IMG/VR virus record: IMGVR_UViG_648276650_000001
Span: 1 to 15,112 of that record
DNA: 15,112 nt
Origin: a virus
Taxonomy: Duplodnaviria; Heunggongvirae; Uroviricota; Caudoviricetes
Reading direction: 5' to 3' (one strand)
Position numbers and translations under genes: made by a program. Under the pieces are notes generated by a model. That model saw only the letters and a list, made by a program, of their open reading frames with translations, was not told the DNA's origin and did not search any database. This document shows positions 1 through 8,229 of this stretch, piece by piece (the stretch's first letter is position 1; the number at the start of each line of letters is the position of its first letter).

Positions 1-342
1 GACGAAGTAATTTTCAGGGAATATTTCTATGATACACCACCAGAAGGAAAATACAGATGTGTCGGAGAGGATGGGCTGCCTGCGTGGGCAGATATTCCTC
101 CACCCACGCATGAAGAACTTATTGAAATTACAGAATCAGAAAGACAGCTACTAATTAACCAGGCCAACGAATACATGAACAGTAAGCAATGGCCCGGTAA
201 AGCCGCTATTGGTCGTCTGAAAGATGATGAACTGGCGCAATATAATTTGTGGCTGGATTATCTGGACGCACTGGAACTGGTTGATACCTCCAGTGCTCCA
301 GATATTGAATGGCCTACGCCTCCGGCAGTTCAGGCCAGATGA
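1..342 (+). CDS. tfa: Tail fibre assembly protein, C-terminal part only (5' end lies outside the window); convergent with the minus-strand tfa
   Basis: Frame 1 of the plus strand is open from base 1 to TGA at 340-342 and translates to ...GRLKDDELAQYNLWLDYLDALELVDTSSAPDIEWPTPPAVQAR*. The C-terminal motif (TSxAPDIEWP) is the conserved Tfa end as I recall it from lambda Tfa. Absent from the ORF track because no long Met-initiated stretch falls inside the window. Confidence 0.7.
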   Translation, partial: DEVIFREYFYDTPPEGKYRCVGEDGLPAWADIPPPTHEELIEITESERQLLINQANEYMNSKQWPGKAAIGRLKDDELAQYNLWLDYLDALELVDTSSAPDIEWPTPPAVQAR

Positions 343-919
343 CATCCGGCGCGGTGCTGGTATCTGTTGCCGTCACCGCGTCAATGTAATCCAGCACGGC
401 GTTAAGTCGGGTTGTTTCTGCCTGCGTCAACTTCCGTCCGGCCTGTAATTTCAGCTGAATCAGACTAATGGAAACCATTGCTGCATCAATCAGTGACTGG
501 CGCTGTGCTTCTGCCGCTTTTACTGCGGCACCATATTGTGCCTCAGTATCTGTCACCCATTTCTCACCATCCCATTTATCGTATGGCGTTAACGGAGCGA
601 TAGTGCTCGTATTTTCAGGGTAATCTCCTGGCGCGGTGATTTCTTTTGGTTCTCCAGTTTCGGTGCTATAAACAATTTCACCGCGATGGTCTGGCACATA
701 TTTCCACGAGTTCAAATCCGTTGAGCGGCATATTGCATAACCAGCTTTAGATGCACCTGGTGCATCTAAACAAGAACATGCCGGGATACCGACACCGACA
801 GCAAGATATTCTGTTGATGTTGAAATATATTCCTGCGTCTCACCATCATAATTATAAACGGTAACATTCCCCGCCTTTGTAGCAATAAGCTCACTATTTA
901 ATACAGCTTTATTCATCAT
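314..919 (-). CDS. tfa: Tail fibre assembly protein (Tfa-like chaperone)
   Basis: 201-aa ORF. The C-terminal half (DHRGEIVYSTETGEP...YDKWDGEKWVTDTEAQ...DTSTAPDVIWPELPEA) resembles lambda Tfa as I recall it. The start overlaps the stop of the upstream tail-fibre gene in an ATGA arrangement. Confidence 0.85.
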   Translation of the reverse strand: MMNKAVLNSELIATKAGNVTVYNYDGETQEYISTSTEYLAVGVGIPACSCLDAPGASKAGYAICRSTDLNSWKYVPDHRGEIVYSTETGEPKEITAPGDYPENTSTIAPLTPYDKWDGEKWVTDTEAQYGAAVKAAEAQRQSLIDAAMVSISLIQLKLQAGRKLTQAETTRLNAVLDYIDAVTATDTSTAPDVIWPELPEA

Positions 920-1887
920 GCAGCCCTCACAATATAATTAAAAGCGATGTTACGTGGACGATTTTCATTTGCTGTTGGAACGACATTTGCTGCAGAAAAA
1001 TAAACATCTTGTCTGATACGTCTGTCTGTTGCGTAAGTCATAGGTACGTTAATGTTATTTCTAGTAGTTTCTTCCCCATAAAAGGCCCCAGCCACACCAC
1101 TAACATCGATAATTGCATTAATCTCACTGTTAACACGCTGCTGACCGAATGAACCAGTGATGTTTCGAATGGCATCTCCCTGTGACGAAAGCAAGCTACG
1201 GTTAGTATCAATTCCTCTTCCATCATCCCAGCCACGAATGAACTCACCACGTAAATCAGGCAATTTTTTTGTCGGGTAAGCCTTTGCCAGTTCCGGGTAT
1301 TCTTCAGCAGAAAAAACCGCACCGTTGCATTTCAGCCAGCCTGTTGGCGGAGTGGCGGAAGGCCACGGAACAGGGACACCAACAGGTAATGCAGAGCCTT
1401 CTCCCAAACCAAGGTTTGTGCTAGCGTCTGCGGCATTCGTTGCGCCGGTACCACCTTGATTAACCGGCAAAGCTCCGTTGCTCCCCTTCTGCAGTAATTT
1501 CCCAAGAGCCGGGATTGATAAACTGGTGCCATTGATCGTAACGGTAATGTTCTGGTTGGCTGAGGTTGTGGCGAACGTCTCCCACGCACCAATATTCTCG
1601 TCATACTCCTTGATAAGCTGCGACATGGCCTGCGCCAGCCCATCAACCGAGATATTGTCTGATACCAGAATGCCGTACTTCTGGCCGCTCAGCGCCGGTG
1701 ATGCAGCAGGCGTTACCGTCATTGACGTGGCGCTATTCACGGATGAAATCTGGAACAGTTGCACCGGGTTAGACATCACGATAATTGTCTGGCCAGCGCG
1801 AACCTGGCTGGCCGGTGCAGTCCAGTTTGTACCGGAGCCGGTTGCGGTATTTCCGTTAATAGAGATAGTTCCGGTGCTATAAATCAT
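916..1887 (-). CDS. Tail fibre protein (short, 323 aa) with a C-terminal phage-tail-collar type domain
   Basis: The C-terminal region (PVPWPSATPPTGWLKCNGAVFSAEEYPELAKAYP...LPDLRGEFIRGWDDGRG...NIAFNYIVRAA) resembles the conserved C-termini of E. coli prophage side tail fibre proteins (StfR-type ...NIAFNYIVRLA) as I recall them. It has its own AGGAG Shine-Dalgarno 5 nt upstream of the ATG at 1887. Confidence 0.85.
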   Translation of the reverse strand: MIYSTGTISINGNTATGSGTNWTAPASQVRAGQTIIVMSNPVQLFQISSVNSATSMTVTPAASPALSGQKYGILVSDNISVDGLAQAMSQLIKEYDENIGAWETFATTSANQNITVTINGTSLSIPALGKLLQKGSNGALPVNQGGTGATNAADASTNLGLGEGSALPVGVPVPWPSATPPTGWLKCNGAVFSAEEYPELAKAYPTKKLPDLRGEFIRGWDDGRGIDTNRSLLSSQGDAIRNITGSFGQQRVNSEINAIIDVSGVAGAFYGEETTRNNINVPMTYATDRRIRQDVYFSAANVVPTANENRPRNIAFNYIVRAA

Positions 1888-2392
1888 AACAACTCCTAAA
1901 TTTAGACAACATGAAGCCCGGAGAGGTATATAACCCTCACCAGAAATAATTTCTGAATTGGTTTTTAATACATGTTGGGCAACGCCAGTGTTGGCATAGC
2001 TATAGTTGTATCAAATGCCATTGACCACCAACCCAAATAATAATTGCCGACTACTTTATTCCTTTCCGCTATGACATTCCCACCTGTCATTACAATTCCT
2101 TTATACCTAATATTTCCGTAACCACCAACGTGTCGACAGTTAGCCCCGGTATAAACAATCTGGCAAAATTTATCACCAATATTCAGGTTCGCATTGGTGA
2201 TATTTATTGTCCCATCAAAAATGAATGGCTTCGTGCAAGTAAGAACACGTTTGCGTTGACGATTGGTTTATTCAATCCATCAACTAGAATACCTTGTAAA
2301 AGAATTGCCATAATATTTCTCACTTTATTTAACTTACTCAGCATAACAAGTATATTGAAATTCAACCATGTCAACAACACAAAGGAGTCCCA
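1888..2392. promoter_or_regulatory. AT-rich non-coding region between the divergent tail-fibre gene (-) and lipoprotein gene (+); presumed to hold divergent promoters
   Basis: About 500 bp with no convincing ORF and clearly more AT-rich than the flanking coding sequence. Exact -35/-10 hexamers could not be assigned with confidence. Confidence 0.4.
2171..2202. repeat. Perfect 10-bp inverted repeat with a 12-bp spacer (TATCACCAAT-n12-ATTGGTGATA); candidate protein-binding site
   Basis: Read directly: tatcaccaat (2171-2180) and attggtgata (2193-2202) are exact reverse complements. Confidence 0.5.
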
Positions 2393-2626
2393 ATGAAACT
2401 CGCTCTAATTATGCTGCCATTATGTCTGTCCCTCACTGCATGTGGTAATGGTTTAAATACCGGTAAACCAAATTCCGGTGTCATTCCAAAACCTTTGGAT
2501 CGCGATGGTAACGGTTCTTTAATTTATGATACCGAAAAGCTTCCAATGACTGGGCAATGGTGCCATGAAATTGATCACGAATACAGACGAATTGGTTCAC
2601 CTTCAAACTGTGTGATTGATTATTGA
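2393..2626 (+). CDS. Small lipoprotein (77-aa precursor); candidate Cor/Llp-like superinfection-exclusion moron
   Basis: AAAGGAG Shine-Dalgarno 7-8 nt upstream of the ATG. N-terminus MKLALIMLPLCLSLTAC has a hydrophobic core and an LTAC lipobox, with Gly at +2. Two further Cys in the mature part. AT-rich relative to the tail genes. Followed by a strong hairpin with a T-tract. Confidence 0.75.
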   Translation: MKLALIMLPLCLSLTACGNGLNTGKPNSGVIPKPLDRDGNGSLIYDTEKLPMTGQWCHEIDHEYRRIGSPSNCVIDY

Positions 2627-2662
2627 TAATTAACCCCTCAAACGAGGGGTTAATTATTTATT
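2627..2662 (+). terminator. Intrinsic terminator for the lipoprotein gene, formed by a 13-bp perfect palindrome and shared with the 3' end of J
   Basis: taattaacccctc (2627-2639), loop aaac, gaggggttaatta (2644-2656), then tttatt. The T-tract is good on the plus strand only; on the minus strand the hairpin is followed by TCAATAATC. Confidence 0.7.
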
Positions 2663-5600
2663 ACGACCAACTGCCAGTTCCGCGAGTCATTAATATTACA
2701 GACGGGCGCAAGTAGCTATTATAGACGTTCGTATACGCCTCCTTAACGCTTATTGTTACGCTCGACGCTGTCTTTCCTTTCACTGCTAACGGTATGGTTA
2801 CATCCATGTCGGGACCATTAGCAGCTCGCTCAATGCTCCTTGTAATTGAGGTCCCCCCTATGTTAGCAGTCACAGTTATACGACTTGCCTGATTTGATGT
2901 ATATGCGGTTAAACTATAACTTAATAGCAACACAAAGTCTTTAGATAATGTTGAACCAGATGAGTCTTTGAAAGTTTTTGTCCAGGTTCTTGAACTTGTA
3001 GTTTCTGTGTTTGGTATTGCGGACTCAGCAATGACACACATATTCGCAACATCACCGATAAAACTTTGCGCTTCTACAGTTCCTTTGAACTTACCGCTTG
3101 TTGCTTGTATCTCACCAGTAAAGCTACCGCCACTAGCATATACCACACCTCTGACAGTTACGTTATTGAATTCAGCATCCCCGGCTTTATCAAGCTTCCA
3201 GCCAGCAGAACCAGCAACATAATTGTTCGACTGGATATAGTTGCCGATTTTGGCGTTCTCAATGGTGCCGTCCTGGATGAAGCTGGCCCGGATGAATGTC
3301 TGCCCGTTCTGGATCACGAACGGCAAAGCCACGCTATTTCCGGCCGCCGTGGTGACGGCGAAGCGATCAGCCAGGAAGATAACCTGCGACTGCATGCCGG
3401 ATGGCGTATTCTCCACGCCGATCCCCATCCCTGCGGCGTAATACTGCCCGTTGCTGGAGACACCAACCTTGATGTTGTACATCGCGCTGAGTTCGCCATT
3501 AACGTTGGCTATAGCCTGAGCGTTAGTGGTGATGGCGGAGGTATGCCCGTTCACGGTCGCCGTGATGCCGTTTATCTGCGTGGCGGTGGCCTGCTGATAG
3601 TCGGAGAGCGTCTGATTCAGGCTGTTGATGGATGCCTTGTTGCCGTTGACGTCCGTCTGCAGGCTCAGCAATGAACGTGCTGTGGCTTCCTTCTCACTGA
3701 CGATCACCTCGTCGAGACGGTCCAGCTGAGCGCTGTTACCGGCGACCGTTGCGGATAGCCTTTTGCGTGTGGCGACCTGCGCCAGCCCGTTCTGGATAAT
3801 GGCAATGGCTGAGTTCTTGACCCCGCCCGTCATGCCATCCATAGACACACTGATGCTGTCGATTCGCTGGCCCAGCGCGGTATCAGCCGTCGCAACGGTC
3901 TGCTCAAGCTGACTGAGTGAAGACGAAACATTCCCGACCGTGCTGGAAAGCTCATTAACGCTGGTCTGAACCTTCCCGACGTCCTGGGCATTTTTGGCGA
4001 TGTCCTTCGCCTGCTGCTCCAGTTCGTCGTTGGCCTGTTTGATATCGTTAGCCATGTCAGCAATTTTTTCATTGCTGTCCACCGCGTTCTCGATCAGGTC
4101 CTTGAACGTATCGGAGCCTTTCATGTCCTCCAGGATCACATCTGTGATGTCGGAAACATCGATGCTGGCCTGTCCTCGCACCCATTCTGTGTACCCTGAT
4201 TCGTTGCCGCTGCGGTCCACCAGCTGAGCGCGGTACCAGAAAATCTGCCCAGCATTGAGGCCCATCTGCTGATATTTGCGCTGCGGATAAGGCACATCGG
4301 CCAGCAGCATCGCATCGTCCTCGGTTCCGGTCAGGCTGTACTGAATTTCCGTCTTCAGCGTGTCGTCGGTATTCGCCGGGAATCCCCAGTTCAGCTCGAT
4401 GCCGAAATCCACATTTTCAGAAGCGATGAAGCCAACCGGCTTAGGTGGATTGCCCACTTTACCCGTCAGCGTTTTCTCTTCTGAATAGCCCCATCCGGAT
4501 GAAATTTCTGCGGCATTGATTGCGCGCACCCGCACCAGGTAGCGCCCGGCATAAATCCCCGGGACGTCGAATGACGTGGTGGAGGTGCGCGGCACGTTAA
4601 CCCAGTTCCCGTCGTTGCGGCGCCATTGCGCTTCATAGGCGATAGCGTTCTGCGCCTGGTCCCAGCTCACGCGCATCGTTTCGACGCTGATATTTTGCTG
4701 CACCACGGAAAACGAGCTGATCACGATGTTCGCAGGCGGCGACTGGTTACCAGGCGGGATCACGCTCACCGGCCGCTGGTCAATAATGGCTCCGGTATCG
4801 ATTCGGGCATATTTATCCGGATCGTGCCATGCACCGGTAATGGTGAAAGTGCCATCATCGTTATCAGTGACGCTCACAACACGGTACTGCTGTGCGTACA
4901 GTTCGTTTGACTCAACCACCCAGACAGCTTCGGCCTGCGGCGTCTCACTGTATGCGGTGGTGACTGTGACCGATTCCCCGTTAACCGCCTGAATTGTCCT
5001 GCTCTGTGACGCTCCGGAGGGAAGGTTGAGGATAAGGCGATCACCTGCTGCCGCATCAGCTACACGGTCAAGTTTGATAACGCGACCATTAACGGCGCTG
5101 ATGCGTCCGCCCATAACCTTTCCGGAAAGCAGCTCGTCTGCCACAGCGATGATATAGCCAGGCTGCGGTATGTTTCCGTCCAGCCCGACATCGAACGAAA
5201 CAACGCGATCCTTGTTGTTGGTGAGAATACCCCAGCGCCCCTTTCGGTTCGCTTCTGACTGTCTGGTACAACCAATGGCTGTCATTTCGAGCTGATTTGT
5301 GCCAAAGCGAGCAACGAGATCCTGCTCAAATACAGGCTCCATCGCATCCGCGTAGGCATTACCCGGATCGGACCAGGAAACCAGTGCTGTGGTATAGCGG
5401 GTTTTCGTGGTGCTGCCCGAATAGGTAAAGCGCCCATTAACCACGTTTGCACGCGTGTAGCTGTAATCCACATCGCGGGGCATATCCGCCAGCGCAACGA
5501 TTTGATCGCCACCCCAGTACGTCATGCCCCGGAATATCGCCGCAAAATCACGTAACACGGTATAGGCATCATTCCTCTCCTGCACATACACGTTGCAGGT

Positions 5601-6926: not shown

Positions 6927-7510
6927 TGTTGATCCCCAACGTAAATCCCGGCTGAAATAATTGCGCCGCCTATGCGTCGGCGACCATAAAGAAGCGGTAC
7001 CGGATAGCCCTGCGCTGCGGTGTTTGTGACTCCGCCGAACGCGTATGAGGCGCGGTTATCTGAGCTCTGTTTGCTGGCCAGCCCTGTAGCCTGGGGGGAT
7101 AACATCTGAACTACACCCCCCAGCGTTATGGACGCACCAGCAGCAAACATCATATTGCTGGCAGCTATACTCAGACCTGGCATCCAGATCGATGCAATCA
7201 CTAATACTGCGCCCAGGATAGTTTGAATCAAACCGGCTTTTTTACTCCCGATGATTACCGGGACAATGCGGATAACATCGCCGGTAACCGGGAAACCGAG
7301 GTCATCCACACCGATGTTTTTTTTACCCTTAAATACGGAGTATGTGATCCCACGGCGCTGGCTGGAAATCATAAACTGCTCAAAGCCCGGAATAGTCTTT
7401 GCGAGCGCCACTCCCGCCTCGCTTACACGGGAAATCAGGCGGTGGTGAATTTTACCGAATGATTTCCCGAGCACGCCGCCAAGCTCAATGCGGGTCATTA
7501 CTTCCTGCAT
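6923..7510 (-). CDS. I: Tail assembly protein I
   Basis: 195 aa, between K and J. Gly/Ala-rich hydrophobic middle and the C-terminal motif (VPLLYGRRRIGG) resemble lambda gpI (LPVLYGEMRVGS) as I recall it. Confidence 0.9.
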   Translation of the reverse strand: MQEVMTRIELGGVLGKSFGKIHHRLISRVSEAGVALAKTIPGFEQFMISSQRRGITYSVFKGKKNIGVDDLGFPVTGDVIRIVPVIIGSKKAGLIQTILGAVLVIASIWMPGLSIAASNMMFAAGASITLGGVVQMLSPQATGLASKQSSDNRASYAFGGVTNTAAQGYPVPLLYGRRRIGGAIISAGIYVGDQQ

Positions 7511-8229
7511 GTTTCACCTGCCATTACATCTTTATAGCGAACGATCTTCATCGTGCGCTCCTGCCAGTATCCGCCATAAGGAACTCGCTGGCTCAGATGC
7601 CCGTAAAGATGGTGCAGCAGCATGTTACCCTCCAGTAAAATCCCGGCATGATTCCACTTATCGGCCTGCACCTGCATGATTACGAGGTCCCCTTCCTGAG
7701 GCGGGCCGTCAAACTCCCTGAATCCGCATTCATACCAGCAATCCTGATAGAAATTGTCCGGGTAGTCGTTTTCCCACCAGGGATAATCCACCCGGTAATC
7801 GTAGAGCTCGATACCGTGGGTCTGCCGGAAATAGCTCATTACCAGACCCCAGCAATCGAAGTGGCCAAGCACAAACGGTCGCTCCAGCAATGGGAGCTCC
7901 CCGCGTGGCTGAATGGTACGTAAATCCCCCTCTGGCCAGCTCACAATATGCCAGGGCAGCAGTGTTGCATCACACTGCGCCTTATCAAGCTCGCTGGCCT
8001 GTGTCGTCGCGTCAGGATGGCTGTGAACAATGGCTACCACCGTCCCCCAGTCTTCTGCCGCTGCGTAATCTTCGGGGGACAGGTGAAAATGTTCAGTCGG
8101 CTCTGCTGCGAGATTACGACAGGGAAAATAGCGCTCAACCCGGCTTTTCTGTGCCACCACGCCGCAGCACTCGCGCGGATATTCCGCTGCAGCGTGTGCC
8201 ATGATGGCATCAATGGTTTTCTGACGCAT
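7498..8229 (-). CDS. K: Tail assembly protein K (MPN/JAB plus NlpC/P60-like domains)
   Basis: N-terminus MRQKTIDAIMAHAAAEYPRECCG resembles lambda gpK (MRQETLNAIRAHAAA). Contains an HSHP JAMM-type motif and a DCWGL Cys motif. Position between L and I. Confidence 0.9.
   Translation of the reverse strand: MRQKTIDAIMAHAAAEYPRECCGVVAQKSRVERYFPCRNLAAEPTEHFHLSPEDYAAAEDWGTVVAIVHSHPDATTQASELDKAQCDATLLPWHIVSWPEGDLRTIQPRGELPLLERPFVLGHFDCWGLVMSYFRQTHGIELYDYRVDYPWWENDYPDNFYQDCWYECGFREFDGPPQEGDLVIMQVQADKWNHAGILLEGNMLLHHLYGHLSQRVPYGGYWQERTMKIVRYKDVMAGETCRK

Follow-up and report, generated by a model that had tools for sequence, protein, structure and literature searches.

A probable Din-family invertible tail-fibre segment at the contig end of an HK97-like lambdoid Escherichia prophage

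The analysed stretch of DNA, here called the window, is the entire 15,112-bp contig GG771772.1 of the draft assembly GCA_000164235.1. Its minus strand carries a lambdoid tail module with homologues of the tape measure, M, L, K and I genes and a 1314-aa J/TipJ protein. The reading frames of these genes, as well as those of the side tail-fibre gene stf and the chaperone gene tfa, are all open, and the module, which is approximately 95% identical to prophage tails of complete E. coli genomes, looks intact. The genes and features found beyond J, towards the left end of the contig, are listed in Table 1.

Table 1. Genes and sequence features at the left end of the window.
Feature	Position	Strand	Description	Basis
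tfa', 3' part	1-342	+	113 codons and stop; chaperone gene of the predicted silent cassette	Caudo_TAP, E 1.2e-29
tfa/tfa' overlap	314-342	both	29-bp overlap of convergent 3' ends	ORF coordinates
tfa	314-919	-	201 aa; TfaE-like chaperone of the cassette predicted to be currently expressed	Caudo_TAP, E 7.7e-31; phrog_105, E 2.5e-96
stf	916-1887	-	complete side tail-fibre gene, 323 aa; present fusion of Sc and Sv	ORF listing; phrog_3100 tail fiber, E 1e-86
Sv	916-1410	-	variable C-terminal part of Stf, aa 160-323; inside the putative segment	Pfam Collar, aa 170-217
Crossover site	1399-1424; AA core 1411-1412		26-bp Din-family site TTCTCCCAAACC-AA-GGTTTGTGCTAG, inside stf	motif search and comparison with published sites
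Sc	1413-1887	-	constant N-terminal part of Stf, aa 1-159; outside the putative segment, carries the ATG	near-identity to EC2001 Stf
Membrane-protein gene			disrupted remnant downstream of J, in the order J, lipoprotein, remnant, stf	
Lipoprotein gene	2393-2626	opposite to J	77 aa, downstream of J	

The stf gene starts with an ATG at 1885-1887, preceded by an AGGAG ribosome-binding site (reverse complement of ctcct) at 1893-1897, and its stop is overlapped by 4 nt by tfa, which has 87% nucleotide identity to e14 tfaE. In the second chaperone gene, tfa', the frame is uninterrupted from base 1 up to its stop codon (340-342); the gene is cut at its 5' end by the contig end, and about 102 nt of it are missing. 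The product of the remaining part shows 100% identity to the last 113 aa of the 147-aa E. coli Tfa WP_338789594.1. Two alternative Tfa genes of opposite orientation, both belonging to Caudo_TAP, lie side by side. The preliminary description of this DNA had noted a minus-strand fibre and tfa pair meeting a second, plus-strand tfa that ends at 342, with an overlap of 29 bp at 314-342, and the ORF listing together with Pfam confirmed this arrangement. An overlap of the same length is present in e14 tfaP/tfaE and in six other prophages (L001, L002, L006, L008, L009 and L010). Since it is annotated likewise in e14 and other E. coli prophages, the overlap is taken as inherited architecture and not as chance. 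The numbers of promoters and terminators predicted by scanning positions 1-2800 were no higher than in shuffled sequence, and therefore neither a dedicated stf promoter nor an inter-tfa terminator is claimed.

A search with AAACCNNGGTTT (AAACC-NN-GGTTT) produced one match in the 15-kb window, at 1406-1417, the number expected by chance being 0.03. The match lies within a 26-bp sequence that has the layout of Din-family crossover sites, with two half-sites of 12 nt, imperfectly inverted, flanking a core of 2 nt in the pattern TTC---AAAC- -A -GTTT---GAA. The 16-nt CCTTCTCCCAAACCAA at 1397-1412 is an exact copy of the inverted repeat reported at the ends of the e14 P segment, which is 1797 bp long (PMC12529663). 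In comparison with published sites (Table 3 of PMC3241671), there is no difference from pixL or pixR in the left half-site or in the AA core, and over the whole 26 bp 22 positions match e14 pixL, among them all those of the inner half-site and of the core. Read on the minus strand, the site translates to N-L-G-L-G-E, amino acids 158-163 of Stf. The AA core falls in stf codon 159, which places the predicted exchange point at nucleotides 1411-1413.

Several groups of elements share sequence with the window up to this site. Matches in P2-like phages run from window position 36 to 1412-1420 and then end. The e14 matches cover window positions 187-966 and 1205-1420, with 87-93% nucleotide identity over tfaE and the collar-type tip, and HK97 matches positions 262-1968 with approximately 90% identity. 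When 500 bp centred on the site were compared with 5,426 complete E. coli genomes, one half of the query was matched in 1835 genomes, and every alignment either ended or began at window positions 1398-1420. Both halves together were found in none of the 5,426 genomes, and neither the exact Sc-Sv junction of the window nor its flipped counterpart was present in any complete E. coli genome of this set. These alignments show the crossover site as a sharp module boundary for the exchange of fibre tips among lambdoid, e14-like and P2-like elements.

The same boundary divides the fibre protein. The window Stf and the Stf of E. coli strain EC2001 are nearly identical up to NLGLGE and unrelated beyond it, and the window Sv is 87% identical to a silent, promoterless copy that adjoins the invertase gene in EC2001 (positions 3220-3711 of locus L010). 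Collar-type and gp53-like tips are both read across the site in the same frame, so that one constant N-terminal part outside the segment is continued, in a single frame, by alternative C-terminal parts inside it. The comparisons support the reading of stf as a constant part of 159 amino acids joined at the site, without a change of frame, to a variable tip, in the manner of Mu S, P1 S and e14 stfP. The start of its own that the gene has, with ATG and AGGAG, had been raised in the preliminary description as an argument against a truncated variable part; it is explained by the first 159 codons being the constant part outside the segment, just as a switch model predicts. The segment itself, which had been described as a possible half lying at 1-1887, holds up as a segment but not in its extent: the predicted boundary is at 1411/1412 inside stf, so that the window contains about 1411 of about 1875 bp, or roughly three quarters.

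The genes that would lie to the left of the contig end were sought in close relatives, among them prophages of E. coli strains 730V1 (L001), EC09 (L002) and EC2001 (L010). The first two share with the window the gene order J, lipoprotein, remnant, stf, tfa, tfa'. In both, this is followed leftwards by the first approximately 100 nt of tfa', a tip ORF (Sv'), an inverted site and an invertase gene. The Sv' ORF encodes a fibre tip of 116-122 aa with a gp53-like C-terminal domain; it is promoterless, has no N-terminal part and starts at the partner site, which lies 1845-1848 nt from the first site. Paired inverted sites, both with the AA core, were found in L001, L002, L006, L008, L009 and L010. 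In L002 the neighbouring invertase has 182 aa, matches Resolvase (E 4e-39) and HTH_7 (E 1.5e-9), and carries the conserved catalytic motif YxRVST. The invertase type of L001 and L002 matches Gin (PDB 3uj3) over its full length (E 1e-56), and much more weakly gamma-delta resolvase. Identity to PinE is only 53-55% for the invertases of the nearest lambdoid relatives. An invertase gene is present in three of the four close lambdoid relatives (L001, L002 and L010). Instead of a second tail operon, the relatives have a tip fragment with no promoter and an invertase ahead of tfa'. Aligned with L002, the window begins at L002 position 6001, from which we infer that about 460 bp of the segment and the invertase gene would lie beyond the contig end.

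In E. coli Nissle 1917 both sites and both cassettes are kept and there is no adjacent invertase, its place being taken by DinI-like and S24 peptidase genes. Identical Tfa proteins were found in one lambdoid and one e14-like prophage. This identity and the homology break at 1398-1420 are compatible with an exchange of cassettes mediated by the site, but homologous recombination at a conserved motif would explain them equally well.

Both orientations of the segment were found among the relatives. In EC2001, window positions 1398-2660 are colinear at 96% nucleotide identity and positions 36-1412 are reversed; correspondingly, the EC2001 Stf consists of the window-type Sc up to NLGLGE and then a gp53-like tip, with a silent window-type collar tip beside the invertase. 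In the isogenic pair 0H24 and 0H25, the sequences on either side of the locus (4.8 and 4.4 kb) show 100% identity, and the strains differ only by the inversion of a homologous 1885-bp segment adjoining pinE. Across all sites written out, the inner flanks (agagcc or agcacc with the collar tip, tgccgc with the gp53-like tip) swap between the two outer half-sites, as is predicted for an exchange at the AA core. Experiments have shown that the e14 segment inverts, and the extent of its inversion in culture has been quantified (PMC4272514, PMC12529663). Synthetic flipped junctions (L001 Sc with L001 Sv', and window Sc with L002 Sv') had no full-length match in the 5,426 complete E. coli genomes because such combinations of alleles are rare. 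The same search pointed to EC2001 and the isogenic 0H/CX series, from which the orientation evidence was taken.

The exact window sequence was found in three assemblies, the window itself and two Logan runs, and all three cross the site in the same orientation; two other contigs that carry an identical stf do not reach the window in length. There is thus no sign of a mixed population in this genome. Also the position of the contig end was considered as a sign of heterogeneous orientation and rejected, since heterogeneity would break the assembly at the crossover sites and not inside tfa'. It is more likely that the contig ends in a repeat shared with other prophages, tfa modules occurring up to seven times per genome. 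Contigs of 1.2-1.9 kb that consist of such a segment alone do exist, as expected from assembly breaks at crossover sites.

Of the 5,426 complete E. coli genomes, 991 had a convergent tfa pair that spanned 80% or more of window positions 1-900, the best match to this region being 93%. A survey across species, with one genome per species of Enterobacterales, included 48 loci that encode a relative of tfa'. Fifteen of them had a convergent tfa pair and enough flanking sequence, and in 12 of these an invertase gene was adjacent, two of the 12 genes being frameshifted; the remaining three loci had no invertase. Most of the 12 loci bearing an invertase also had paired inverted sites. The arrangement of convergent tfa genes with an invertase is widespread and well described.

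The explanation best fitting the whole material is that window positions 1-1411 very probably form the fibre-gene-proximal part, approximately 75%, of a Din-family invertible tail-fibre segment of the Pin/Gin/Cin type. With the same high confidence, the carrier is taken to be an HK97-like lambdoid Escherichia prophage with the segment situated at the end of the tail operon. A resemblance to the Mu G, P1 C and e14 P segments had already been proposed in the preliminary description, and it is now supported by the in-frame site, by the full architecture of the relatives and by the presence of both states among them. The checks recommended there also gave positive results: AAACC-NN-GGTTT has its single match in the window at 1406-1417, the search leftwards for a second fibre gene and an invertase, run on E. 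coli relatives, found the promoterless tip, the inverted site and a serine invertase, and the search for both orientations, likewise run on relatives, found EC2001 flipped in relation to the window and the 1885-bp inversion between 0H24 and 0H25. The far site, Sv' and the invertase of this particular genome are postulated from the relatives, the contig ending 1411 bp into the segment. By analogy with them, the segment would still flip in this genome, and flipping would act as a switch of host range.

Dimers of Din-family invertases bind the two crossover sites of 26 bp and come together with an enhancer to which Fis is bound, after which both strands are cut at the 2-nt core, a pair of subunits rotates 180 degrees, and religation leaves the DNA inverted (PMC3798978). 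Applied to this locus, the segment would hold two convergent cassettes, each composed of a variable fibre tip and the Tfa chaperone belonging to it. As the segment now lies, Sc would continue into the Collar tip, the fusion being expressed together with the TfaE-like chaperone while tfa' stays silent. The far partner site, predicted to be TTCTCCCAAACCAA in the opposite orientation, would lie beyond window base 1, and a serine invertase encoded just past it would bind both sites. Together with Fis and the enhancer, the invertase would cut the sites at their central AA and, after rotation, rejoin the ends, by which approximately 1.87 kb would be flipped. After the inversion Sc would read in frame into the gp53-like tip and then into tfa', and the new tip with Tfa' would give virions of a different receptor specificity.

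In the preliminary description simply two convergent fibre loci had been left as an alternative to a switch, and the bare layout taken alone, with facing tfa genes, a separate start codon for the fibre gene and a window that has no invertase gene, could indeed come from two unrelated loci converging by accident, for example at the ends of adjacent prophages. However, the canonical site in stf lies exactly where the homology of all relatives breaks, the 29-bp overlap repeats the architecture of e14, and in the relatives tfa' is preceded by a promoterless tip and an invertase with no second tail operon. The site, the homology break, the overlap and the leftward genes of the relatives effectively refute two independent fibre loci, leaving this explanation extremely improbable. 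A loss of the adjacent invertase, the far site or both in this genome would be harder to see from the window. The orientation would then be frozen unless an invertase acted in trans, and there are examples of such decay: Nissle 1917 has no adjacent invertase despite its two sites and cassettes, HK97 retains the site in stf but just the last 81 nt of tfa', and among the 15 cross-species loci three have no invertase and two a frameshifted one. Also the single orientation of the three assemblies would agree with a fixed remnant. Nevertheless, the site in the window, the tfa' frame and both cassettes are intact, three of the four close lambdoid relatives have the invertase, and the e14 segment is inverted in trans by Pin enzymes of other prophages, which act on the same class of site (PMC12529663), so that a loss of the invertase in cis need not freeze the segment. 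A fixed remnant is therefore considered rather unlikely.

Another possibility concerns the pay-off of the inversion and not its existence. The main benefit to the lysogen could be a chimeric tip protein that blocks the adsorption of other phages, instead of a change in the host range of the prophage itself. Inversion of the homologous e14 segment gives the gp53-like chimera StfE2, which blocks T2 adsorption (PinQ/StfE2; PMC12529663), and the alternative tip in the segment family of the window is likewise gp53-like. On the other hand, what produces the StfE2 effect is a fragment whose reading starts on the side of the invertase, and the prophage concerned is cryptic, while the intact-looking tail module in the window favours a function in virions, and such a defensive role as the main benefit is judged very unlikely here.

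A broader reading would connect these elements with each other. The 14-nt half-site and core TTCTCCCAAACC-AA is common to HK97-like, e14-like and P2-like elements, and through it their segments might form one trans-acting network, in which any resident Pin-type invertase could flip the tip, crossover between prophages could move tip and chaperone cassettes, and the flipped state might block adsorption. This idea is speculative and, as a whole, unlikely to hold.

For the annotation of the invertible segment favoured here, stf should be read as a constant part with a switchable tip, the tfa' fragment as a part of the silent cassette and not as a pseudogene, and the contig end as falling inside a recombination switch. 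A host range predicted for the prophage from its fibre tip would apply to only one of the two states that the segment could take. The segment leaves the present picture of Din-family inversion systems unchanged, being an ordinary feature of a well-known kind.

Among known systems, the e14 P segment of E. coli K-12 with PinE, reportedly described by Plasterk and van de Putte in 1985, comes closest. It has the same class of site, the same 29-bp tfa overlap and the same types of cassettes as the window, and the two share the half-site and core TTCTCCCAAACC-AA as well as NLGLGE encoded by the site in the fibre gene. The e14 segment is 1797 bp long and those of the window relatives approximately 1.87 kb, and the expressed cassette is of the TfaP type in K-12 e14 and of the TfaE type in the window. 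Furthermore, Sc and the tail genes of the window are of the HK97/lambda-like siphovirus kind and not of the baseplate type of e14, Sc aligning only weakly with StfP and, apart from the motif of the site, showing no relationship to it. The setting of e14, with ymfQ and ycfK (stfP) as the constant part and pinE and mcrA as neighbours, was not found in the window, where the context is J, lipoprotein and stf. Judged from these comparisons, the window segment is a homologous segment in a different phage backbone, and not e14 itself.

With the Mu G/Gin and P1 C/Cin systems the locus has in common Sc outside the segment and Sv/U and Sv'/U' opposed inside it, as well as inverted 26-bp sites and an invertase by the far site, the last two being seen in the relatives of the window. 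Mu G and P1 C are segments of 3 and 4.2 kb, respectively, carried by myoviruses, whereas the segment described here is smaller, approximately 1.9 kb, and its carrier is a lambdoid siphovirus. Also the core dinucleotide differs, being AA in the window and GA in gix (Din-family site table, PMC3241671).

HK97 resembles the window in its Stf (81% amino acid identity over the full length), in the type of its tail module and in having the same crossover sequence in stf. It differs in that only the last 81 nt of tfa' are left, followed by sib, att and int, and neither an alternative tip, a second site nor an invertase was found at the locus. These comparisons show the HK97 stf/tfa locus as a fixed deletion derivative of such a switch.

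Din-family invertases act on prophage tail-fibre tips also in the Rac and Qin prophages (pinR and pinQ) and in the segments and shufflons of P2-like prophages (PMC4272514), and P2-like phages share the cassette of the window up to the site. These loci differ from the window in their constant parts and backbones, and some of them have three or more sites that give several tips (for example L037), while the relatives of the window have a simple two-site switch.

Four circular 'plasmids' of 1.89 kb in PLSDB (NZ_CP148551, NZ_CP148552.1, NZ_CP148553 and NZ_CP148554) consist of the interior of an invertible tail-fibre segment of this kind. The sequence of NZ_CP148552.1, used here as comparison locus L060, lacks a crossover site and begins immediately inward of one. 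These four circles are most likely assembly artefacts of a flipping region. Many draft assemblies of enterobacteria likewise have the segment as a separate short contig of 1.2–1.9 kb (L014, L021, L023, L025, L035 and L044), and in one of these, L044 (1860 bp), inverted sites are found at either end (45–70 and 1791–1816). A short contig comprising only the segment is a recognisable assembly signature of tail-fibre switches.

Within the segment, the 29-bp overlap of the convergent chaperone genes tfa and tfa' is quasi-symmetric (window 310–342), with homologous overlaps in the comparison loci L001, L002 and L006–L010. The conserved Trp-Pro codons of either gene are followed just after by the stop codon of its opposite-strand partner, and the length of the overlap is conserved even where the cassette proteins are only ~40% identical.

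The region between the tail protein gene J and stf contains a lipoprotein gene on the strand opposite to both, a placement that appears moron-like, and a hairpin that looks like a bidirectional terminator. A membrane-protein gene remnant is also present, its frame interrupted by stops; its counterparts in the relatives are annotated as pseudogenes or as fragments of 71–87 aa.

Features between J and stf (window positions)
Feature	Position	Strand	Remarks
Remnant of DUF6453 / phrog_1265 'membrane protein' gene	~1965–2396	-	C-terminal part only; between lipoprotein gene and stf
Lipoprotein gene, 77 aa	2393–2626	+	phrog_12984, E 9e-57; signal sequence LSLTAC
Perfect 12-bp hairpin, AATTAACCCCTC-AAAC-GAGGGGTTAATT	2628–2655		Between lipoprotein stop and J stop

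The stf of EC09 (L002) has a tandem duplication of ~78 bp just outside the crossover site (7384–7554), the repeat ATTCGTTGCGCCGGT occurring at 7462 and 7540; its constant part is therefore longer, giving a Stf of 361 aa.

In phage HK97 (L011), positions 2501–2581 are a remnant of tfa', its final 81 nt, with 97% identity to window 262–342; this remnant ends abruptly beside sib/att. The locus has neither an alternative tip, a second site nor an invertase. Because the end of tfa' and the crossover sequence inside stf (3636–3651) are kept and these other parts are absent, the HK97 side-fibre locus looks as if it arose from an invertible segment by deletion. In Trabulsiella odontotermitis (L037, 3125–8864), at least four Din-type sites lie around several tfa genes and the locus encodes two invertases, an arrangement that suggests a multi-inversion, shufflon-like tail-fibre system.
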